A DNA stretch of 64,000 nt, from NCBI GenBank assembly GCA_034722995.1, contig JAYEOL010000022.1, forward strand, positions 4,859 through 68,858. The letters are read 5' to 3'. Made by a program: the position numbers and the translations under genes. The notes beneath the pieces were generated by a model. That model made no database searches and was not told the DNA's origin. It worked only from the letters and a program-made list of their open reading frames with translations. Shown here piece by piece: positions 2,051 through 62,339 of the stretch. Numbering within the stretch: the first letter of the stretch is position 1; every line of letters begins with the position of its first letter. This stretch comes from Candidatus Cloacimonadota bacterium. Lineage in GTDB: Bacteria; Cloacimonadota; Cloacimonadia; JGIOTU-2.

Positions 2051-2389
2051 ATGGCTTATGAGTTAGCTATGGAAATTTTTAATATATCAAAATCATTCCC
2101 AAAAGAAGAAATTTATGCCTTAACTGACCAAATCCGGCGTTCTTCACGTTCAGTTTGTTCGAATATAGTAGAAGCTTATCGCAAAAGACGTTATCCAAAG
2201 TATTTTACTTCAAAAATTACAGATGCAGATGGAGAAGCCAGTGAGACTATAGTCTGGATAAATTTTGCAAAAGACTGTAGTTATATTTCTAAAGGTATTT
2301 ATCAAACTTTAACTAGAAGATATGGTGAAGTTGGAAAAATGTTAGGTAGCATGGCTAATCATCCTGAGCGGTTCATCCCCGATAAATAA
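2051..2389 (+). CDS. Four-helix-bundle protein of the '23S rRNA intervening sequence protein' family
   Basis: 112 aa. The translation (EIYALTDQIRRSSRSVCSNIVEAYRKRRYPKYF...) matches the IVS/four-helix-bundle family. The gene is flanked by inverted repeats (see the repeat features). Confidence 0.8.
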   Translation: MAYELAMEIFNISKSFPKEEIYALTDQIRRSSRSVCSNIVEAYRKRRYPKYFTSKITDADGEASETIVWINFAKDCSYISKGIYQTLTRRYGEVGKMLGSMANHPERFIPDK

Positions 2390-2406
2390 ATACAGCTGCC
2401 CCCCTT

Positions 2407-2437
2407 CTAACTGCTACTGCTAACTGCTACTGCTACT
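2407..2437. repeat. Right arm of the inverted repeat flanking the four-helix-bundle gene (ctaactgctactgctaactgctactgctact)
   Basis: Reverse complement of the left-arm motif. Internally a tandem CTGCTA(A)CTG repeat. Confidence 0.6.
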
Positions 2438-2509
2438 TCCATTTAATCAGTAACTTACGCTAAAGGGGAAACATTATCTTATCTTATTAATGTGTTAATA
2501 GTGAAATCT

Positions 2510-3109
2510 ATGAAATTAGTTCTTGCAACTAAAAACAAAGACAAAATACAAGAGATAAAATCCCTTTTACAAGATTTAAACATAGACATTTTAACATTCA
2601 AAGATTTTGACTCTTTTCCTGATACAATTGAAGATAAGCTAACATTAGAAGGTAATGCGGGGAAAAAAGCTCAAGCAATTTGGCAAAATTTCAAACTCCC
2701 TGTTTTGGCTGACGATACAGGTTTATTCGTTGATGCTTTAAATGGCAAACCAGGTGTATATAGCTCCAGATTTGCTGGCGAGAATGCAACATACGAACAA
2801 AATAGAGAAAAACTCCTCTATATGTTAAAGGATATCCCAAAAGAAAAACGAACAGCAACCTTTAAAACAGTTATTGTTTTTGTTGACAAAAAAGGTAGCA
2901 AATTCGTAGTTAATGGTGAATGCAAAGGTTATATTGGATTTGAAGAAAGAGGCAAAAATGGCTTCGGTTATGATTCTATTTTTTATTATGATAATGTAAA
3001 TAAAAGTTTTGCAGAACTCTCCTCAGAGGAGAAGAATAAAGTCAGTCATAGAGGTATTGCTCTCAGAAAAATAAGAAGTATAATTGAGGAAAATATTAAG
3101 AATATATAA
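2510..3109 (+). CDS. rdgB: dITP/XTP pyrophosphatase (RdgB/Ham1 family)
   Basis: MKLVLATKNKDKIQEI..., DDTGLFVDALNGKPGVYS, SHRGIALRKI. The ORF track starts at 2492, but the conserved N-terminus begins at the ATG at 2510. Confidence 0.85.
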   Translation: MKLVLATKNKDKIQEIKSLLQDLNIDILTFKDFDSFPDTIEDKLTLEGNAGKKAQAIWQNFKLPVLADDTGLFVDALNGKPGVYSSRFAGENATYEQNREKLLYMLKDIPKEKRTATFKTVIVFVDKKGSKFVVNGECKGYIGFEERGKNGFGYDSIFYYDNVNKSFAELSSEEKNKVSHRGIALRKIRSIIEENIKNI

Positions 3110-3167
3110 ACCACCAAATTATACTAAATAACAAAAAAAATTAAGTTAGAATGAGGAGAAAGGAACA

Positions 3168-5162: not shown

Positions 5163-6518
5163 ATGCTTAATCAACAGATATTCCGCGAATATGATATCAG
5201 GGGAGTGGTTGATAAGGACTTAACAGATATTGTTGTCGAAGACATTGCTTTGAGTTTTGGTACTTATATTCGAAACAAGGATTTAAAGAGCATTGCCCTT
5301 GGTAGTGATTGCCGTTTAAGTTCTGATAGATTTCGCCAGATATTCTCTAATGCATTGCTAAAAACCGGCTGTGATGTGGTTGATGTAGGCACTGTACCAA
5401 CTCCTGTTCTCTACTTTGCAATTGAACATCTAAAAACTGATGGTGGAGTAATGATTACTGGAAGTCATAATCCGCCAGAGTTCAATGGATTCAAACTTTG
5501 TGTTGGAACTTTCTCAATTTACGGAAAAGAGATACAAAAAATAAGAGAAATTATTGAAGATGGAGTATATATTGCTGGAAATGGAAAATGTAAACAATAT
5601 AAAAAAGTAATTCAAGATTATCAGAATTATTTAGTTAATAATTTGAATTTGAAAAGAAAATTGAAGGTTGTGGTAGACTCTGGAAATGCCACGGCAGGTC
5701 CAGTTGCTCCGAAACTATTTGAAAGATTGGGATGTGAAGTTATATCTTTATATGAAGACATGGATGGAAATTTTCCCAATCATCACCCTGACCCCACTAT
5801 TCCTGAATATTTGGAAGACCTGATTTTAACCGTGAAGTCTAAAAATGCCGATACAGGTATAGCATTTGATGGCGACGCTGACCGTATTGGTGTAGTTGAT
5901 GAAAATGGTAATATTATCTGGGGAGACCAATTATTGATGATATTTGCCAGAGATGTTTTGGAAACAAATTCCGGGTCAATAATTATTTCTGAAGTTAAAT
6001 CATCTAAGAATCTATATGATGATATTAGCAAACATGATGGTATCCCAATTATGTGGAAAACAGGACATTCGCTAATCAAGCAGAAGATGAAAGAAGAAGG
6101 AGCTTTACTTGGTGGTGAGATGAGTGGTCATATGTTTTTTGCTGATAGATATTTCGGATTTGATGATGCAATCTATGCAGCAGGTAGGCTTATGGAAATA
6201 CTTTCTAAATCTGATTCAAAACTAAGTGAATTACTTGCAGATGTTCCTGAAACATATAATACTCCAGAAATTAGAATTGATTGTCCTGATGAGATAAAAT
6301 TTGAAGTTGTGGAACAAGTAAAAAGTTATTTCTCAAAAAAGAATTATGATATAAACGATATTGATGGAATGCGTATAACTTTTGATGATGGCTGGGCACT
6401 CGTGCGTGCATCAAATACTCAACCGGCTTTGGTCTTAAGATTTGAGAGCACCTCCCAGGAAAGATTAAATGAAATTCAAAAAATGATTACTGAAAAAGTG
6501 CAGGAGTTTATTAAATAG
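5163..6518 (+). CDS. Phosphomannomutase/phosphoglucomutase (alpha-D-phosphohexomutase family)
   Basis: Active-site TGSHNPPEFNGFK, sugar-binding GGEMSGH; 451 aa. Confidence 0.85.
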   Translation: MLNQQIFREYDIRGVVDKDLTDIVVEDIALSFGTYIRNKDLKSIALGSDCRLSSDRFRQIFSNALLKTGCDVVDVGTVPTPVLYFAIEHLKTDGGVMITGSHNPPEFNGFKLCVGTFSIYGKEIQKIREIIEDGVYIAGNGKCKQYKKVIQDYQNYLVNNLNLKRKLKVVVDSGNATAGPVAPKLFERLGCEVISLYEDMDGNFPNHHPDPTIPEYLEDLILTVKSKNADTGIAFDGDADRIGVVDENGNIIWGDQLLMIFARDVLETNSGSIIISEVKSSKNLYDDISKHDGIPIMWKTGHSLIKQKMKEEGALLGGEMSGHMFFADRYFGFDDAIYAAGRLMEILSKSDSKLSELLADVPETYNTPEIRIDCPDEIKFEVVEQVKSYFSKKNYDINDIDGMRITFDDGWALVRASNTQPALVLRFESTSQERLNEIQKMITEKVQEFIK

Positions 6519-6740
6519 AAATCAACAATAGCGTTTGTTACTTTTATTATAAACGATGAATCCTAAAACAGGAAAATAAGTAAAAGGTGATTATTCTTAT
6601 TTAGGGTTATAAGAATAAATCTTGATATTTAAAATACTATTCTACAATCTATAAAAGGTTGTTCAAAACAACCAATCCAAGTGAAATAGAAAAACAGATT
6701 TCACGGGACAGGAATAATAACTAAAAACTTGGAGGATAAC

Positions 6741-32796: not shown

Positions 32797-34086
32797 TCAA
32801 TATACATCATCTCCCAATTCAGCACCCTTGATAATTGCCCATTTAGATAGACCTGGACCTAATAATTCATTTACAAAAACTGAGAATATAACAATGTTTA
32901 CCATAGTTACTGCAATGCTTTGCATTTGAATGCTTGCATGAACAATAATCGGTGATGCTTGAACCATTAGAACCAATCCAATTGCCACTCCGGCTTGTGG
33001 AAACATACAGAAGCCAAGATAATTTCTAATATTTAGTTCTGATTTGCTACAAGATGCACCTAAGTATACACCAGAATATTTACCAATCAGTCTTGCCAGA
33101 ATGAATATTAGACCAAAGAATAAAATTTTTGGACCTGTAAAGATACCAAGCTGTAATTCTGTTCCAGCAATAGCAAAAAAGGCAGCATAAATCGGTGGAG
33201 TAAGCGGTTCTAATATTCTTGAAATACGTTCATTCTTTGCAGATAGGTTTACCAAAGTTGCTCCCACCATCATATTTGTCATAAGTGGTGAGATATGGAG
33301 TGGATGCGCCAGTCCAATTATAATAAAGACAATACCCAGAGAGACAATCATAATCTCACTTTTATTCTGTCTTTTGTAAGTTACCCTATGCAGAATATAT
33401 CCTCCCAAGAATCCAATGATGAGTGAGAATAATATTTCCCAGAACGCCTTTGCAATCGTAATTCCAACAGCAACTGAGGTACCATTAGCTTTTGAAATTA
33501 TAGAGCCTACTAAAGCAAGAACAATACTAAAAAGGAGCACTGAGCCTGCATCATCTAGAGCCACAAGACCATAAAGATAGTCAACAAATTTTCCACGTGC
33601 TCGCAAACTTTGGACAATAACCACTGTAGCAGCCGGTGCTGTTGCAGTAGCAATTGCTCCTAAAAGGAGAGCGAATTCAGACTTAAATCCGGCTAAAATT
33701 AATGCTAAGCTTACTATAAGAAAGGTCATTCCTATTTGGAAAAATGTGGTAATCGCAACTTTCCTGCCGATAGCTTTTAATTTTACTTTTGAGAATTCAC
33801 CTCCAATTACAAGAGCAATCAGTCCCAATGCAGTTTCTGTAATAGGCCGTAGAGCATGAACCATTTTGAGCTCAATCACTGCACCAATAGATTCTCCCAA
33901 GAGTATACCTGCTATAATATAGCCAGTAATTACAGGAAGTTTTACTTTTTCAGCAAGTTTGCCAAGTATATATCCAGCAATTAGCAGGATTCCAATTGCA
34001 AAGAGAATATGCTGACTAACTGCTGTTCTCAGCCAGATTAGTCCATCTTTGAGAATGATGCAGATAGCAGATAAAGTTGTTGACAT
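32797..34086 (-). CDS. Cation:proton antiporter (CPA2/KefB-like)
   Basis: 429-aa polytopic membrane protein with CPA2-like helices. Confidence 0.7.
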   Translation of the reverse strand: MSTTLSAICIILKDGLIWLRTAVSQHILFAIGILLIAGYILGKLAEKVKLPVITGYIIAGILLGESIGAVIELKMVHALRPITETALGLIALVIGGEFSKVKLKAIGRKVAITTFFQIGMTFLIVSLALILAGFKSEFALLLGAIATATAPAATVVIVQSLRARGKFVDYLYGLVALDDAGSVLLFSIVLALVGSIISKANGTSVAVGITIAKAFWEILFSLIIGFLGGYILHRVTYKRQNKSEIMIVSLGIVFIIIGLAHPLHISPLMTNMMVGATLVNLSAKNERISRILEPLTPPIYAAFFAIAGTELQLGIFTGPKILFFGLIFILARLIGKYSGVYLGASCSKSELNIRNYLGFCMFPQAGVAIGLVLMVQASPIIVHASIQMQSIAVTMVNIVIFSVFVNELLGPGLSKWAIIKGAELGDDVY

Positions 34087-34216
34087 AATCTATCTTTCTT
34101 AAGAAATTTTATGGGAAGATTTTTCTTGTGGATTGGACATTGATGTCAAGATAAAGTTAAAAAAGTGTTAAAAAATTGACATAGAAAATAGAATCATAAG
34201 AAAGTTTGTATCTAAT

Positions 34217-34732
34217 ATGAAAGAACTTTCAGATGAATATTGGATGAATATTGCATTAGAAGAAGCACAAACTGCCTTTGCAGAAGATGAAATTCCCATA
34301 GGTGCAGTTTTGGTATGCAATGATAAACTTATTGCCCGAGCTCATAATAGCACGCAGAGATTAAATAGTCCTCTGGCTCATGCAGAAAAATTAGTTATTG
34401 AATTGGCTCAACAGGAATTGGGAAAGTGGTTATGTGATTGCAGATTGTATATAACACTCGAGCCATGTGCAATGTGTGCTGGTGCGATTATTCTCTCAAG
34501 AATAAAATCAGTAATTTTTGGTACTTTTGATGAGAAAAACGGGGCATGTGGGTCTTTATATAATTTGCTTTCAGATAGGCGATTTAATCATAATCCCGAA
34601 GTAAAATCTGGTATTTTCGCAAAAGAATCCAGTGAACTCTTGAAGAGATTTTTTAATGAAAAGAGAATTTCAACCACCTGCCTTTTCACCCTTCGTCCCG
34701 ATGAAATCGGGACTACGGAGAACGGGCGTTAA
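34217..34732 (+). CDS. tadA: tRNA-specific adenosine deaminase TadA with a roughly 21-aa C-terminal extension
   Basis: HAE and PCAMCAGA zinc-binding motifs. The canonical C-terminus (...LKRFFNEKR) is followed by ISTTCLFTLRPDEIGTTENGR, encoded by a repeat module. Confidence 0.85.
   Translation: MKELSDEYWMNIALEEAQTAFAEDEIPIGAVLVCNDKLIARAHNSTQRLNSPLAHAEKLVIELAQQELGKWLCDCRLYITLEPCAMCAGAIILSRIKSVIFGTFDEKNGACGSLYNLLSDRRFNHNPEVKSGIFAKESSELLKRFFNEKRISTTCLFTLRPDEIGTTENGR
34695..34713 (+). repeat. Hairpin module gtcccga-tgaaa-tcgggac inside the 3' extension of tadA. Copies of the same family lie at 58909-58928, 59041-59066 and 57632-57651.
   Basis: Read directly. The flanking ctacggagaacgggcg is also a recurring module. 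Confidence 0.65.
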
Positions 34733-34873
34733 GACTACGGCAAGGCAGGCAAATTAACATAAATAATTGAAGTTAGGAGTAGAACGAAATGCGAAGAGAG
34801 TGAAATGCAGATCAGATATAGAAGTTTCCAACTCATATATGCTCCCCGCTCAATGCTCTACGCTCTACAAAAA

Positions 34874-34963
<90 letters not shown>

Positions 34964-35119
34964 TACTTCGTTAAAACTTCGTATGGCAAGCCATTTTATT
35001 ATAAGATTGAGCCACGAACTAACGCGAACTCGCACAAATTATTATAATATCTATTTTGTACGGTAATATTATATTTTATTCGTGCCAGTTCGTGTATGTT
35101 CATGGCTAAAGAAGTTCTT

Positions 35120-35210
35120 GGAGAGATGCCAGAGTGGTTGAATGGGACGGTCTCGAAAATCGTTTTCCCGATTATCGGGAACGTGGGTTCGAATCCCACT
35201 CTCTCCGCCA
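35120..35210 (+). tRNA. tRNA-Ser(CGA), long variable arm (TTCCCGATTATCGGGAAC), encoded CCA
   Basis: Acceptor GGAGAGA/TCTCTCC, anticodon loop CTCGAAA, T-loop GTGGG TTCGAAT CCCAC. Confidence 0.85.
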
Positions 35211-35364
35211 TAATTCGTTAAAACTTCCACTCGCCATCCAGATGTATCGGGATGGAGGAGGAGTGTCGTATGGCAAGCCATTTTATTATAAGATTGAGCC
35301 ACGAATTTACCCTGTCAGGCTCGGCCAGTCTTGGCGGGGCCAAGCCCCGACAGGCGCCCAGACG

Positions 35365-35400
35365 GGTGAAATAATCCTGATATATCAGGATTATTTCACC
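35365..35400. repeat. Perfect 36-bp palindrome (ggtgaaataatcctgata|tatcaggattatttcacc) downstream of the tRNA-Ser pair
   Basis: Verified base by base. Confidence 0.8.
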
Positions 35401-35592
35401 GGGTATGCACTAACTGACACGAACAGAATATAATAATAGTTCTGGTAAAAATAAAACATCAGGTTTCCCCAAAATGATGCTGGAGATGAGATTGATATTA
35501 ATGGTATAAAAAAATGAATTAAAGCTTTGACAAAAAGGTGAATAAATTTGATATTTTAAAAATATACAGAAAAAACTTAAAGAAAGGATACT

Positions 35593-36267
35593 ATGAAAAA
35601 ATTTATGGTATTAATATTATCTTTGACTATGTTATTTATAGTTAATTGCTCATCAAGCACAGATAATAATCCCACAACTCCCTCTGTTACGATAACCCAA
35701 CCTGTGGATGGAGATACACTTTTTACATCAACTACTTTGATAAAAATAGAAGTATCAGCCGATGAAGATATTGATAATGTTTCATTTAGTATAGATGATG
35801 AAGGGATATATACTGACCAGACCCAACCATTTGAATGCGAATGGTCTGATTTTTATTGGGCAGATGGGCAAAAGCATACTATTGAAGCAACAGCCTATGA
35901 TATTAATAATATTCCGGGATCTGATAACATAACTATTACAGTCTCAGAAGATGCTAAGAGATATCCCACATTACTGGAGCCTGAAGATAGTAGTGAAGTG
36001 CAAAATCCGATAGAATTCAAATGGAAAAGTCTTCCTGATGCTCAGTACTATACTATGAAAATTGTAAAAGAAGACGATACCACCTTTACATTTATACAAC
36101 AGACAACCGAAACTTTACCCCCTGCACACCCTGATACAACTCTCAATTTCAGTATTCCTGATACTGCTGGTCTTGGTCATTATACCTGGACAGTACAAGT
36201 CCAAAATATATGGACTCTTTGGAGTGAATATAGTCCACCTTTCCATTTTATTTTAACGGACGAGTAA
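35593..36267 (+). CDS. Hypothetical lipoprotein with Ig-like domains
   Basis: Lipobox IVNCSSS; 224 aa, beta-rich. Confidence 0.5.
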   Translation: MKKFMVLILSLTMLFIVNCSSSTDNNPTTPSVTITQPVDGDTLFTSTTLIKIEVSADEDIDNVSFSIDDEGIYTDQTQPFECEWSDFYWADGQKHTIEATAYDINNIPGSDNITITVSEDAKRYPTLLEPEDSSEVQNPIEFKWKSLPDAQYYTMKIVKEDDTTFTFIQQTTETLPPAHPDTTLNFSIPDTAGLGHYTWTVQVQNIWTLWSEYSPPFHFILTDE

Positions 36268-46192: not shown

Positions 46193-47200
46193 ACTTTTTA
46201 TAAACAGTTTAGTTTTCATATTTTAAAAGCAGGCATCATTGACAATGGTAAAATGAAGTTGCCATTTTAGATGCTAAACTCTCCACCTAAATCTTTTAAA
46301 TCCGAAAGAGGATAAACCTGTTTCTACCCACCAACTGACAGGTATCCCTTCCCCGATTTACTCGGGGATAATTGTGGATGGCTTTTCATCCTTCGCAGTA
46401 GCACTGCTACGGAGAATGGATATCCCCAATCAAAATAAAGTGAAAGTTATTTCCAATGGGAAAGATCTATTTCTAAAGCCCTTACTTTTTTTAAAAAAGT
46501 TAAACGAAACTCAATTTTTGGTAAATTAGAAATCGAAATAATCAAATTCTTTTGAAATATTACCTTTAATAGATTTTCTTAACTCTCTAATTTTATTGAA
46601 AGACATTTCTGATAGTTTTATTTTAGGAGTAATAAAAATTTTTACTTCTATGTTATCGGGAAAAGGAATATTGTCTAATTCTAAATCTCCTATCCGGGAA
46701 GGTATTATGAATTGTTTTTTTATCATCTAAAGTCATCACACGAAGAAATTTGTCACCCAACTCAGGGATTATACCCAAAAAGGATATCTATTACCTTCCT
46801 GTCTTTCTACTTTAATTGGTTTCTCTAAAACCCGAATATACTATTCCTTTTTAAGATAAGGTCGTTTTATCAAAAACTTACTTTCAAAATATTTGGTCCG
46901 CCAACTGGCGGATATTTTAACATCACATACCTTATTTACTGAAGTTTTTGTTCATAATAAAAGAATTTCTGTCTAACTAATAATTATACTGCATATTCCA
47001 GTCTAACATCCTATCTTATTCGTTAACAACTCAATTATATAATGCAAGTTACCAAAATAAATAAATGAGAGAAAACTTGTATTATATTTAATCAAAATAA
47101 TTTATTTAAAAAGAAGTGTAAATTAAAAAGAATTAATTTTTGCTTGACATTAAAATTTAAAGAGACAATTTCAGTGTACTTTTCAATGGAAAAGTGAAAA

Positions 47201-55043: not shown

Positions 55044-55111
55044 GGAAATAGGGTAGAAATTAAAGATTAAAGTGCTGAAAAGATTAAAGCAAAAAAGAGA
55101 GGAGAAACAAA

Positions 55112-55465
55112 ATGGCAATAAAAACACCAAACATTAACAATGTAACTTTAGCCGGAAACATTGTAAGAGACCCAGAAATACGAGAAGTTGGTGAGAAAAA
55201 GACGAAAGTTACTACAATTACAGTAGCAAATAACCGTCCGTATCAAGATAAAGATGGGAAATGGCAAAAGGAGACTACTTTTGTTGATGCTGAAGTATGG
55301 GGTTTACAAGCAGAAAAACTCGGTGAATACGGCAAAAAAGGCACGCCAGTTATTGTGGAAGGAAATCTAAAACTTAATAAGTGGGAAGATAAAGAAGGAA
55401 AATCGTATTCTAAATTACGGATAAGAGCCAATAGAATTCATATTCTAAATTATCCAGAGAAATAG
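55112..55465 (+). CDS. ssb: Single-stranded DNA-binding protein, OB domain only, no acidic C-terminal tail (copy 1)
   Basis: Aligns to the E. coli SSB OB fold (NNVTLAGNIVRDPEIR..., VWGLQAEKLGEYGKKGTPVIVEGNLKLNKWEDKEGK); 117 aa. Confidence 0.85.
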   Translation: MAIKTPNINNVTLAGNIVRDPEIREVGEKKTKVTTITVANNRPYQDKDGKWQKETTFVDAEVWGLQAEKLGEYGKKGTPVIVEGNLKLNKWEDKEGKSYSKLRIRANRIHILNYPEK

Positions 55466-55601
55466 TGCTCCGATTTATCGGAGTGAATCTAGATAGTTAT
55501 AAAATTTTGGAAAAAGATTAAAGTGCTTGAAAGATTAAAGATTAAAGTTCTGGAAAGATTAATGCAAAAATGAGATATGGCAAAATATGATAAAATATAA
55601 A

Positions 55602-55765
55602 TTAGGATTAGCCCCACAATTTATTGTGGGGTAAAGAAATAAAAGAATATTTTAACTGTTTCAACAGTTTACCCGCTTACAGAAAGAGTTTATGGGAAAC
55701 CGATGAATCGGTTAAGTATTTCTTTTTTTTAGGTTCCCCCTGATAAATCAGGGGGCTAATCCTAA
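55602..55765. repeat. 164-bp nested inverted-repeat element between SSB copies 1 and 2: outer 11-bp IR (ttaggattagc / gctaatcctaa) enclosing four hairpins
   Basis: Hairpins ccccacaat/attgtgggg, aactgtt/aacagtt, aaccgat/atcggtt and ccccctgat/atcaggggg, read directly. Followed by tattttgcagaacccat, a copy of the right TIR at 38590-38605. Confidence 0.55.
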
Positions 55766-55816
55766 AAATATCTATTTTGCAGAACCCATTTAATGCAAAA
55801 AAGAGAGGATAACACA

Positions 55817-56170
55817 ATGGCTATCAGAACACCAAACATTAACAATGTAACTTTAGCCGGAAACATTGTAAGAGACCCAGAAATACGAGAAGTTGGTGAG
55901 AAAAAGACGAAAGTTACTACAATTACAGTAGCAAATAACCGTCCGTATCAAGATAAAGATGGGAAATGGCAAAAAGAGACTACTTTTGTTGATGCTGAAG
56001 TATGGGGTTTACAAGCAGAAAAACTCGGTGAATATGGCAAAAAAGGCACGCCAGTTATTGTGGAAGGGAATCTAAAACTTAATAAGTGGGATGATAAAGA
56101 AGGAAAGTCTCATTCTAAATTACTGATAAGAGCGAATAGAGTTCATATTCTAAATTATTCGGAGAAATGA
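55817..56170 (+). CDS. ssb: Tail-less SSB paralog (copy 2)
   Basis: About 97% nucleotide identity to copy 1. The conserved start is the ATG at 55817 with the same AGAGAGGA RBS (the track ORF starts upstream at 55793). Confidence 0.8.
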   Translation: MAIRTPNINNVTLAGNIVRDPEIREVGEKKTKVTTITVANNRPYQDKDGKWQKETTFVDAEVWGLQAEKLGEYGKKGTPVIVEGNLKLNKWDDKEGKSHSKLLIRANRVHILNYSEK

Positions 56171-56312
56171 TAAAGTAACAAAGTGATAAAGTAAAAAGCA
56201 AAAATCAATCAGGCTTTGCAAAGCTACGCCATGACAAGAAAGGAAAAATCAGAAATTAGAAATAAAATAAACCAAATTATTGAAAATCTAATTAGAGAAT
56301 AAAAAATTTTAT

Positions 56313-56492
56313 ATGAAACGCATTGTGCATAAGTCCCATAGTTTTAAAGAAGCTGAAAAGTGGGATATCCAGCAACAGATAAACATGACCCCACAGCAGA
56401 GATTGGAATCTGCAAAAGAATTAAGCAAAAGGGTGTACGGAACAAATTTGCTGGATGTTCGAGAATATCATGAAAGAAATAAGAAAAAATAA
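56313..56492 (+). CDS. Small partner protein of the NTase module (family member 3, 59 aa; below the track cutoff)
   Basis: MKRIVHKSHSFKEAEKWDIQQQINMTPQQRLESAKELSKRVYG... shares the TPxxR motif and overlaps the NTase start. Confidence 0.4.
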   Translation: MKRIVHKSHSFKEAEKWDIQQQINMTPQQRLESAKELSKRVYGTNLLDVREYHERNKKK

Positions 56493-56961
56493 TTATTCCC
56501 CCGATGTTCTTGAACTGATGGCATTGTTATACAAAAATAAAGTAGAATACTTAATTGTTGGTGGTCAGGCTGTGATTTATTATGGACATGTTAGACTTAC
56601 AGGTGATATTGATTTTCTATACAATCAGACTGAGAAAAATGTTGATAAACTCTACATTACGCTCCTTGAATTCTGGAATAATGATATACCTGGACTTCAC
56701 GATAAAAATGAGTTGATGGAAAAGAATGTTATCTTTCAGTTTGGTGCGGTTCCAAATCGTATAGATTTGATTAGCAAAATCGAAGCAGTAAATTTCAAAG
56801 GAGCATGGCAAAAACGAGAAATCGTTAAAATTAATACTGGGAACGAAATACTAGAAGTGTATTTTATTGATGCTGAAAATTTGATAAAAAATAAAGAAAC
56901 GCTCAAAAGAGAAAAAGATCTTGATGACTTAAAATATTTAAAGCAGATTAAATTGAAATAA
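56455..56961 (+). CDS. AbiEii-like / minimal nucleotidyltransferase-fold protein (module copy 2)
   Basis: YLIVGGQAVIYYGHVRLTGDIDFL. Confidence 0.6.
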   Translation: MFENIMKEIRKNNYSPDVLELMALLYKNKVEYLIVGGQAVIYYGHVRLTGDIDFLYNQTEKNVDKLYITLLEFWNNDIPGLHDKNELMEKNVIFQFGAVPNRIDLISKIEAVNFKGAWQKREIVKINTGNEILEVYFIDAENLIKNKETLKREKDLDDLKYLKQIKLK

Positions 56962-56991
56962 TATAACGGGAAAAAAGAGAGGAGAAACAAA

Positions 56992-57339
56992 ATGGCAATA
57001 AGAACACCAAACATTAACAATGTAACTTTAGCCGGAAACATTGTAAGAGACCCAGAAATACGAGAAGTTGGTGAGAAAAAGACGAAAGTGACAACAATTA
57101 CAGTAGCAAATAACCGTCCGTATCAAGATAAAGATGGGAAATGGCAAAAAGAGACTACTTTTGTTGATGCTGAAGTATGGGGTTTACAAGCAGAAAAACT
57201 CGGTGAATATGGCAAAAAAGGCACGCCAGTTATTGTGGAAGGGAATCTAAAACTTAATAAGTGGGATGATAAAGAAGGAAAGTCTCATTCTAAATTACTG
57301 ATAAGAGCGAAAAGAGTTCATATTCTGGTCATGCCATAG
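56992..57339 (+). CDS. ssb: Tail-less SSB paralog (copy 3), with an altered 3' end
   Basis: Near-identical to copies 1 and 2, including the 25-nt upstream region. The last codons differ (…HILVMP*) because of a 16-nt indel. Confidence 0.8.
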   Translation: MAIRTPNINNVTLAGNIVRDPEIREVGEKKTKVTTITVANNRPYQDKDGKWQKETTFVDAEVWGLQAEKLGEYGKKGTPVIVEGNLKLNKWDDKEGKSHSKLLIRAKRVHILVMP

Positions 57340-57827
57340 GCATAATTCCAGAGAAGTAGCATTCCGATTTATCGGAGTGAATATAGGTAGTCATAAAATT
57401 TTATAGCTAACTCTTTCAAACAAGTATGAAATTTGAGGAGTCCCGAAAACAAATTGGGGCATCCCATTAAATAGGAAAAGATTTAACCCCAGTGAAATAG
57501 TCCCGATATACCCGTTCTCCCCGCCTTCCATCCGGATTTGTCGGGAGGACTGCGTTTCGGAGCTGGCGGGTAGATTCGGGTTTATCCCAAATCAAAATAA
57601 AATGAAGGCGTTTTCAGATGAAACATACATGTCCCCGATGTCTCGGGGACGCAAAGGAGAATGAAAATTGAATTTGTTTGCGTTACAAAGTAAAATTTTG
57701 GTAAAGAACTGGATTCCCGCGTTCGCGGTAATGACAGCTTGTTTTGACATTTGTGATTGTTAGCACCAGTTATGATTATAATGAATAAGGTGTACTTTGT
57801 GCCTTTGTGGTTAGAAAGGATTTTCAG

Positions 57828-58899: not shown

Positions 58900-59006
58900 C
58901 CATCCTCCGTCCCGAAAAAAGTCGGGACTGCGCCTGTCCACCGTAATATCCGTTCTCCATAGCAGTGCTACTGCGAAGGATGAACTATGGAAGGCGGGGA
59001 GGATGG
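58900..59006. repeat. Nested IR element: outer ccatcctcc / ggaggatgg enclosing hairpin gtcccgaaaaaagtcgggac and a ctccatag[cagtgctactg]…ctatggaag stem
   Basis: Read directly. The core ccgttctccatagcagtgctactgcgaaggatgaa recurs in the opposite orientation at 46385-46419. Confidence 0.55.
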
Positions 59007-59103
59007 GAAGAGCAAAGATTAAAGACCAAAGCAATCCGTCTTCGTCCCGATAAAAGATTCGGGACTACGCCGAGACTGAAGAAAAAGCAATGAATAATGA
59101 ACA

Positions 59104-60710: not shown

Positions 60711-60852
60711 AGTAGCACGGATCCCCGCGTCCGCGGGGACTGTTCCGTAAAAGACCAAAAATTATCCACCTTCACTATAGTTACGGAGGACAAGAAGGTA
60801 AACGGAAAGTAGCACGGATCCCCCCGTCCGCTGGGACTGTTTCGTAAAAGAT
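60711..60852. repeat. Two 45-nt direct repeats (agtagcacggatcccc[g/c]cgtccgc[g/t]gggactgtt[c/t]cgtaaaaga) with a 97-nt period
   Basis: Read directly. Each contains a ccccgcg-tc-cgcgggg hairpin. The sequence between them has a homolog at 62100-62140. Confidence 0.55.
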
Positions 60853-61697: not shown

Positions 61698-61865
61698 CAG
61701 GGTGAAATAAAAGAAGCATAAGATTTCACCCCGATGAAATAACAAAAAAAAGATTTCATCCCAGTGAAACAAAAAAGATGGTTTCACAGGATAAATTGGG
61801 CAGGCGGGTCAAGAAAAGTAAAAAGCAATCCGTCTACGCTACACCGAGACTGGCAACTAAAAAGC

Positions 61866-61904: not shown

Positions 61905-62339
61905 TAGAATGGGATAAAGTAAAAAGGGATAAAGTAAAAAAATAAAATGAAAATTGATAAAAATATTAAAGATAATCCTTTATTATACAAAACTTTTCTT
62001 TTGGCACTTGAGATAATAAAATTATAAAAATATCTTACAAAAGAGAAGAAAGAATATATAATGTCCAAATAGTTAAAGACAAGATTAAAGACTAAAGACC
62101 ATCCACCTTCGTTATGACTACGGTGAACAAGAAGATTAAAGATTAAGGCAAAAGCAGAAAGAGTAAAGGTAAAGGAGTAAAGATTAAAGGTAAACCTGCT
62201 CCGCAAATGCTTCGTACTTGTCTTACGAAGTTCTCTGGATGGAGAACGAAGTATGAGGTCAAGAAGAAAAAGCAGACAAATAATCCGTCTGAGGCGTCCT
62301 AAAATAAGTTGACTCAAAAGAATGAAATGAGAAGCAAAT

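Follow-up and report, generated by a model that had tools for sequence, protein, structure and literature searches.

The tadA gene in a 64-kb window of the Candidatus Cloacimonadota contig JAYEOL010000022.1 (the window being the whole stretch of 64,000 nt analysed here) carries close to its 3' end a 42-nt palindromic element that resembles the repetitive extragenic palindromes (REPs) of other bacteria. On the alleles compared, this repeat is an in-frame insertion upstream of a stop codon that already lay inside an older hairpin module, and the stop has not been displaced. In the list of open reading frames (ORFs) the gene (34217-34732, + strand) has 171 codons followed by TAA at 34730-34732. 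The last 21 codons (34667-34729, + strand), which translate as ISTTCLFTLRPDEIGTTENGR, form a tail in three parts: the left arm of the outer module encodes ISTTCL, the 42-nt insertion (TTCACCCTTCGTCCCGATGAAATCGGGACTACGGAGAACGGG; 34685-34726, + strand) encodes FTLRPDEIGTTENG, and the outer module again supplies the final R, with the TAA directly behind it. The product accordingly ends ...KR-ISTTCL-FTLRPDEIGTTENG-R, and the predicted C-terminal peptide segment reads ...FFNEKRISTTCLFTLRPDEIGTTENGR.

A preliminary description of this DNA had noted that the ORF continues for about 21 codons past ...KR, and both the length of the ORF (171 aa) and the extent of the known domain agree with this. An NCBI 'nucleoside deaminase' entry, derived from a metagenome-assembled genome of Candidatus Cloacimonadota, matches the protein at 100% identity. 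Its deaminase domain (34217-34666, + strand; aa 1-150) has intact HAE and PCxxC zinc motifs, and the zinc-site residues H55, E57, C84 and C87 are invariant in an alignment with 22 relatives. Pfam matches are to PF14437 (MafB19-deam; 7e-35) and PF00383 (dCMP_cyt_deam_1; 4e-27), the NCBIfam TadA equivalog NF008113 gives 149.4 bits against a cut-off of 150, and in the PDB the top matches are TadA without exception (E down to 3e-43). None of the alignments to Pfam, NCBIfam TadA or PDB TadA goes past residue 150-151 (...FFNEKR), which makes the last 21 residues extra. Among the 120 best homologues the segment past KR has 0-18 residues, with 13 or fewer in 117/120, and a 21-residue tail is found only in this protein and P0002; outside P0001 and P0002 the full tail is absent, both among these homologues and in the alignment of 22 relatives. 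Solved TadA chains run 4-14 residues past the same point, and the length of the tail is unusual yet in character for TadA. An AlphaFold2 model built on a shallow multiple sequence alignment (22 sequences) has its last helix at residues 135-158 and a predicted local distance difference test score below 50 for residues 156-171, and the tail is thus predicted to be disordered.

Filled and empty alleles at the tadA 3' end

The tadA 3' ends were compared between the window and two related loci, L001 (89% aa identity; run SRR25383464) and L002 (86%; from a third run). The L002 allele is empty and reads ...AAT GAA AAG AGA ATT TCA ACC ACC TGC CTT CGT TAA AAC TAC GGC AAG GCA GG, giving an ORF that ends ...KRISTTCLR*; the left and right halves of the outer module are contiguous in it, with nothing between them. 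The window allele reads ...ACC TGC CTT [42 nt] CGT TAA GAC TAC GG..., and both the window and L001 have the 42 extra bases ttcacccttcgtcccgatgaaatcgggactacggagaacggg between CTT and CGT in what is otherwise the L002 3' sequence. L002 lacks exactly the segment at 34685-34726 of the window, L001 has those 42 nt, and the stop codon is identical in all three. The preliminary description had taken the repeat to have captured or displaced the stop codon, which has to be revised given that the empty allele ends at the same CGT TAA and the 42 nt were added upstream of it; that the extra codons derive from a repeat holds, as the 42-nt unit recurs with the same ends elsewhere. A metagenome scan for the junction between tadA and the outer module returned 0 matches, so that no further alleles were gained.

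The outer module consists of a left half, CCACCTGCCTT (34674-34684, + strand; 8-nt stem arm at 34677-34684), and a right half, CGTTAAGACTACGGCAAGGCAGG (34727-34749, + strand; stem arm at 34742-34749), with the TAA at 34730-34732 in a small loop. Its layout is CCTGCCTT-CGT-taaRact-ACG-gc-AAGGCAGG (taagact in the window), the loop supplying the TAA. In L002 this hairpin folds alone (-14.6 kcal/mol, z=-3.5), and in the window the outer stem still closes around the insertion (z=-3.0 for the RNA fold and z=-4.5 for the DNA fold). With the insertion removed, the outer tadA module aligns with 62096-62139, with 60759-60802 and with the trailers of both downstream tRNA-Ser genes via a CTTCGTTAARACTWCG core.

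Comparison with more distant relatives, by which the preliminary description had proposed to locate the ancestral stop, points to a position further upstream. Relatives at 78-85% identity end KRI* (L005), KRNI* (L003), KRAG* (L006) and KRDSNFARV* (L008). In the A/T-rich stretch right after KR, L005 has AAGAGAATTTAACC where the window has AAGAGAATTTCAACC, and in L003 a TAG stands two codons past KR, with a second stop, an in-frame TAAGAC, where the window has its own. On the simplest reading of these 3' ends, the gene would once have stopped one or two codons after KR, just upstream of the hairpin module, and the ancestral stop was probably lost via small changes in the A/T-rich stretch. Loss of this stop would have led to the state seen in L002 (+6 to 7 residues), after which the 42-nt element would have been added (+14); as the tadA genes are mosaic, this order of events can only be inferred. 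In mid-gene L001 is most like L003 (88/90 identical in one block), and its last 90 nt and tail are most like the window instead; this suggests recombination between lineages at the tadA locus.

Repeats are prone to assembly errors, and the DNA comes from a metagenome-assembled genome; a mis-assembled repeat, or a sequencing error that removed the true stop, could in principle produce such an ORF. An artefact of assembly or gene calling is nevertheless scarcely credible, as the same junctions, frame and stop occur in the independent run that contains L001 (90% nucleotide identity), the outer module occurs with the same stop in the third run (L002), and both flanks are unique sequence with conserved synteny.

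The 42-nt element and its copies

In the element at tadA, a 10-bp outer stem is parted by a 3-nt CTA bulge from a 7-bp inner stem, GTCCCGA/TCGGGAC, which closes a 5-nt loop. The inner hairpin, GTCCCGA-tgaaa-TCGGGAC (34695-34713, + strand; 7 bp), is an exact inverted repeat and the most stable part of every predicted fold, RNA and DNA alike. A GTAG tag on the minus strand (34713-34716; CTAC on the + strand) forms the 3-nt bulge between the inner and outer stems. The register common to the family (alignment A2) comprises a 10-bp outer stem, a CTA or CTG bulge, a 7-bp inner stem and a 3-6-nt loop, with 87% of cells paired in this register and 60% or fewer when the register is slid. The boundaries of the tadA copy coincide with the ends of independent copies elsewhere. 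It is 14 codons long and stop-free in four of the six frames, so that translation would run through to the pre-existing stop. Rfam at the gathering score finds only two tRNAs across the window; for 34500-35600, with E allowed up to 5, it finds tRNAs and noise, and nothing overlaps 34667-34760. Full-text literature searches returned only unrelated primers and aptamers for the hairpin sequence, and only CRISPR papers for palindromic repeats of Cloacimonadota.

A covariance model, R1, was built on an alignment of 16 copies; the tadA copy scores 67.8 bits against it. R1 finds five family members in the window at E<1e-4, the tadA copy included, in keeping with the earlier proposal that the hairpin and a ctacggagaacggg module make up a recurring intergenic family. 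A member at 46385-46420 (+ strand; 32.5 bits, E=1e-7) shares the outer frame TTCATCCTTCG...CTACGGAGAATGGA and has another central hairpin, and one at 58949-58984 (- strand; 28.8 bits) is 95% complementary to 46385-46423 (inverted repeat I2). Two core hairpins lie on the + strand: CGTCCCGA-aaaaag-TCGGGACTGCG (58908-58932; 23.2 bits), which is in another frame and about 19 nt past the stop of an epimerase gene, and CGTCCCGA-taaaagat-TCGGGACTACG (59043-59069; 23.8 bits), whose frame aatccgtctt...ccgagactg recurs without the hairpin at 61825-61856. The GTCCCGA/TCGGGAC arms are exact at 34695-34713, 58909-58928 and 59044-59065 (3 matches versus 0 in shuffles); CTACGGAGAACGGG is exact only at tadA, with 2-mismatch copies at 46407-46420 (+) and 58949-58962 (-), making 3 versus 0.06 expected. 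Recurrence had previously been placed at three sites, and the exact arms at 58909-58928 and 59044-59065 support two of them, whereas the third, 57500-57660, has only half-sites and the reverse complement cccgttctcc (57512).

Beyond the window, the 42-nt sequence is found with the same ends in unrelated contexts of other Cloacimonadota contigs, where nearly identical copies number in the dozens. An exact-pattern metagenome scan gave 35 copies in 34 stretches, most of them intergenic; mean column identity is 89% among 16 aligned copies. All aligned copies have CTACG or CTGCG, and the tag is on the opposite arm in four sequences (L045, L047, L127 and the second L116 copy). Two copies lie within other genes. 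In the Cloacimonadota contig L116 an ORF for a MeaB/ArgK-like GTPase (2128-3159) reads the element in another frame and ends NSPFVPISSGLRRTGISG*; as far as the ORF tells, this is a second independent C-terminal capture. In L131 (Ga0315312_1005630, at about 6567-6610) the element lies on the opposite strand and in frame inside a class II (B12-dependent) ribonucleotide reductase, to which it adds SVLRSPDFLGTKDE, and alignment with T. maritima NrdJ leaves a 12-residue gap over the SVLRSPDFLGTKDE region.

The core is more widely distributed still. A genome scan for CGTCCCGA-N(1-14)-TCGGGACTRCG identified at least 120 loci (L009-L128), and the matches listed include Planctomycetota, Bacteroidota (with a cultured Flavobacterium), Patescibacteria, Verrucomicrobiota, Nitrospirota and others. 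In 70/122 of the matches listed, CT[TC] stands immediately 5' of the searched core, compared with about 3% expected by chance. The whole 42-nt frame occurs in a G/C-richer form (TCCAYCCTCCG...CGGAGGAYGGG) in contigs of Verrucomicrobiia, Planctomycetota and Acidobacteriota. Such breadth is unusual for REPs. The CTYCG and CTRCG boxes, and sometimes whole outer frames, are common to many phyla among the loci listed, and some lineages have conserved flanks of their own, ...gggaggggagatacct[core]gggtagttcatt in Nitrospirota copies and ...ttcgctcattct[core]aggc in those of Ignavibacteria-like metagenome-assembled genomes. A scan of IMG/VR gave only 10 matches, mostly in GC-rich contigs, and there is thus no sign of a phage vector.

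Relation to REPs and other palindromic repeats

Read on the minus strand, the core is GTAG-TCCCGA-loop-TCGGGA-C, in which the GTAG tag stands beside a GC-rich stem of 6-7 bp around a short loop; GCAG variants are found. GTAG-tagged REPs have GTAG, a 6-7-bp stem, a 4-6-nt loop and GYAG degeneracy (Di Nocera et al., 2013; PMC3733652). Most of them follow an ORF closely on its 3' side and are presumed to be transcribed; they also overlap ORF ends and lie inside genes, including genes for tRNA modification, and their termini often supply stop codons (PMC3733652). The tadA element agrees with the 20-40 bp stem-loop of this class (42 nt in total, with a core of 23-25 nt) and with its tag (CTAC at 34713-34716, + strand), and the copy number seen is five family members in 64 kb. 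As with the GTAG REPs and their REP-associated tyrosine transposases (RAYTs) (PMC3733652; Nunvar et al., 2010, PMC2817692), these are short imperfect palindromes with GTAG or GYAG beside a 6-7-bp GC-rich stem; they are multi-copy, mostly 3' of genes, sometimes nested or clustered and sometimes overlapping or inside ORFs, and RAYT genes in related contigs adjoin hairpins with the same stem. They differ from GTAG REPs in that the GTAG is a bulge between the inner stem and a 10-bp outer stem rather than a free end, in that the unit moved at tadA is the whole 42-nt double-stem element, in that conservation of the core and even of the outer frames extends across phyla, where most REP families keep to one species or genus, and in that the RAYT of the element is a candidate only.

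Two loci score above the cut-off of 80 for NCBIfam REP_Tyr_transpos (NF047646), L130 with 109 bits and L019 with 90 bits. L130 is a Cloacimonadota-like contig of 34% GC that also has the 42-nt element, and its RAYT gene (5538-6077, - strand) has gccTCCCGATAAATCGGGAtaaagc (TCCCGA-taaa-TCGGGA) on both flanks. In L019 (Phycisphaerae) GTCCCGAttcaTCGGGG, a GTCCCGA hairpin, lies 45 nt upstream of the RAYT gene, and the two RAYT proteins match each other at E=4e-17. From the arrangement of these loci, the link between a RAYT and the element is suggestive, not conclusive. An all-against-all BLAST of the ORFs around 120 hairpin loci found no recurrent transposase beside the copies. Across 5389-6330 of L130 the flanks of the RAYT gene are the same repeat block, including TCCCGATAAATCGGGA and TTACCAAGC...GCTTGGTAA hairpins, and the blocks are in direct orientation, not inverted.

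A miniature inverted-repeat transposable element was considered and rejected, since comparison of the filled and empty tadA sites revealed no target-site duplication at the junctions. Palindromic elements of Rickettsia were reportedly described by Ogata and colleagues in 2000. These Rickettsia palindromic elements (RPEs; summarized in PMC10969869) are likewise palindromic repeats that lie in frame inside coding genes, essential ones included, as tolerated peptides, and the copies in TadA, NrdJ and the MeaB-like GTPase behave in the same manner. The likeness is one of behaviour only, as RPE-1 is about 100-150 bp and confined to Rickettsia, while the element described here has 42 nt, is presumably unrelated in sequence and lies mainly between genes. 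The bacterial interspersed mosaic elements (BIMEs) of enterobacteria are also mosaics of several palindromic units at the 3' ends of genes, but their REPs stand side by side in alternating orientation where the units here are nested. Translated intragenic palindromes of the REP-like or RPE-like kind are already documented, and the tadA case belongs with them.

Many copies sit between the halves of other family modules, as in tcccga-E-tatatcggga and cgtag-E-tactacgg, where E stands for the element, and in L093 the core interrupts the loop of another REP. The window contains a second instance beside tadA, a 40-nt palindromic insertion, ccactcgccatccagatgtatcgggatggaggaggagtgt (35227-35266, + strand), which splits the trailer hairpin of tRNA-Ser(CGA) between ...AACTT and CGTATGG at a junction of the same CTT^CG type as that in tadA. 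The trailer of tRNA-Ser(GGA) is uninterrupted (ccatacttcgttaaaactt followed directly by cgtatgg), and the first trailer of L003 is interrupted at this point by a different insertion of the family. Tests of landing at hairpin apices gave little: complementarity in the adjacent register was no better than in the control (3.84 versus 3.53 pairs), and flank stems of at least 5 bp were found for 15/43 copies versus 17.5% in controls, with those of at least 6 bp not significant (p=0.24). Since these statistics of flank complementarity are weak, we call nesting common, not obligatory.

It is a tentative possibility, which we would put on the doubtful side, that the copies represent an undescribed and unusually widespread REP superfamily, with the core CTYCG-TCCCGA-loop-TCGGGA-CTRCG, frames shared by Cloacimonadota, Planctomycetota, Verrucomicrobiota and others, and a RAYT clade of its own, which would land preferentially inside gene-end hairpins and, with four of its six frames open, would repeatedly have grafted short peptides onto or into essential proteins (TadA, NrdJ, MeaB) of uncultivated anaerobes.

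Origin of the tail and its surroundings

We consider it likely that the TadA tail is a by-product of selfish or structural repeat DNA, and that it is probably no designed extension. A discrete 42-nt imperfect palindrome has been added at the CTT^CG junction of the outer module in tadA. The element may be a non-autonomous GTAG-tagged REP-type repeat, spread as folded single-stranded DNA by a RAYT, and it may often come to lie within another palindromic module of its own type. The peptide would be a tolerated, disordered appendage past the last TadA helix, and is probably harmless; at the RNA level the nested hairpins might be at most a 3' stabilizer or a processing barrier between tadA and the tRNA-Ser genes.

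Several observations tell against this explanation. Insertion is formally inseparable from a precise excision in L002, and a simple tree gives no polarity because the tadA genes are mosaic. There is no target-site duplication, and no strict consensus for a target emerges from the sequences that flank the copies. The 64-kb window has no RAYT, the hairpins that flank the RAYT gene in L130 have the stem without the GTAG tag or the outer frame, and a RAYT-like ORF in L093 is flanked by a different REP. No double-sided compensatory changes were found for the hairpin in alignment A2, the sequences being too similar for covariation, and palindromy alone supports it. The outer module is conserved beyond the gene body (90-95% identical between the window, L001 and L002, with tadA bodies 86-90% identical), which could mean a function of its own, and the tail is known from the reading frame alone.

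On another reading L002 would be a precise deletion, the filled state being ancestral and nothing having been inserted at tadA in this lineage. Palindromes are prone to deletion and the mosaic gene histories block polarization, yet we regard this as improbable, as the missing segment matches to the base the unit ends in dozens of unrelated copies, and more distant relatives lack both modules. In either direction the unit is a discrete mobile or excisable one, and the anatomy of the tail is unchanged.

Changes within the element bear on whether the peptide or the hairpin is under selection. The window and L001 differ in it at four nucleotides, all in the inner hairpin and all nonsynonymous (PDEIGT versus PNYIET), and two of the four differences (G-to-A in L001) break stem pairs; the remaining tail and the outer module are nearly invariant between the two. 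This pattern fits selection on neither the peptide nor the inner hairpin, and with the outer module conserved there may still be a role at the RNA level. Compensatory stem changes in L001 were considered separately and are ruled out, both G-to-A changes breaking pairs.

An adaptive extension of TadA, modulating for example tRNA binding or the interaction with a partner, could be argued for from the ORF being intact in two independent assemblies. The tail follows the last TadA helix, a helix that touches the tRNA in solved complexes such as PDB 2B3J, itself among the TadA matches, and this would also favour such a role. We nevertheless hold it to be highly improbable: the full tail is present in only two closely related sequences, between which 3/14 inserted residues differ with zero synonymous changes, it is predicted to be disordered, and other genes read this DNA element in two further frames or strands, so that no particular peptide is delivered.

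The alternative that the nested hairpins are kept for an RNA job, such as protection of the tadA mRNA 3' end or a barrier to processing or termination before tRNA-Ser, with the ORF extension incidental, overlaps in part with the by-product explanation and differs from it only on whether the structure is selected. The typical position of REPs just downstream of stops, where they are thought to be transcribed (PMC3733652), is consistent with it, as are a hairpin right after the stop in other tadA relatives (for example tccccaattaattgggga in L008), the greater identity of the outer module than of the tadA body, and strong fold z-scores. We rate it as rather unlikely, because the structure lies mostly in the translated region, where ribosomes would unfold it at each pass, L001 has lost two stem pairs of the inner hairpin, which is thus in decay there, and L002 manages without the inner element. 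A role as terminator, which had also been raised as a question for the hairpin, receives no support. There is a likeness to Rho-independent terminators in the GC-rich hairpin at a gene end, but here the hairpin is mostly inside the ORF and no T-run follows either hairpin, the sequence past it being caaattaacataaat; lacking the U-run, it is not a canonical intrinsic terminator. A terminator scan of 34000-35700 was empty at the hairpins, its sole terminator-like site being on the minus strand, inside a tRNA gene.

Downstream of tadA comes a conserved neighbour, tRNA-Ser(GGA) (34874-34963, + strand), which is followed by tRNA-Ser(CGA) (35120-35210, + strand), both found by ARAGORN and Rfam; the order tadA to tRNA-Ser is also present in L001, L003, L005, L006, L008 and L163. 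Just upstream of tRNA-Ser(GGA), L001 has an expanded tandem of cgctccccgctctacgctctccgct (2120-2180) and the window one shorter version (34845-34870), and more GC-rich modules lie at 35296-35400, past the insertion at 35227-35266. In L163 the tadA ORF (1501-1986) overlaps the tRNA-Ser(GGA) gene (1963-2054) by 24 nt, and its tail, ...GEVSELA*, is encoded by the first 24 nt of this downstream gene. Eleven of the tails listed, from the L163-type Cloacimonadota clade, end ...GEVSELA or ...GEVSEPA, and in this clade tadA and the two tRNA-Ser genes are spaced by 0-7 nt, compared with spacers of 141 and 156 nt in the window. As the L163 tail is made by a tRNA gene, the TadA C-terminus in this phylum tolerates whatever adjoins it downstream.

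Elsewhere in the window, 55080-57339 holds three paralogous short genes for single-stranded DNA-binding proteins (117, 125 and 115 aa; Pfam SSB E about 1e-27 each) in 2.3 kb, embedded in a 300-nt repeat family with 93-96% identity. Between 56455 and 61700, small genes of nucleotidyltransferase-like type (DUF6036, DUF2204/AbiEii-like) follow one another and, together with small partner ORFs that include a DUF5674, resemble toxin-antitoxin pairs; GC-rich palindromic modules and simple AAAGATTAAAG and AATGAATAATG repeats part these genes and give the region the look of a cassette array.

The tadA locus, from an uncultivated phylum, provides a clean, datable case with filled and empty alleles in which a small palindromic repeat has reshaped the C-terminal end of an essential enzyme. 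The case is also a warning for annotation, since what extends this 'nucleoside deaminase' by 21 residues is repeat DNA and not a domain. Given its sequence conservation across phyla, its frequent nesting and its in-frame landings in NrdJ and in a MeaB-like GTPase, the repeat family may merit a survey, which would offer a new test bed for REP-type movement.

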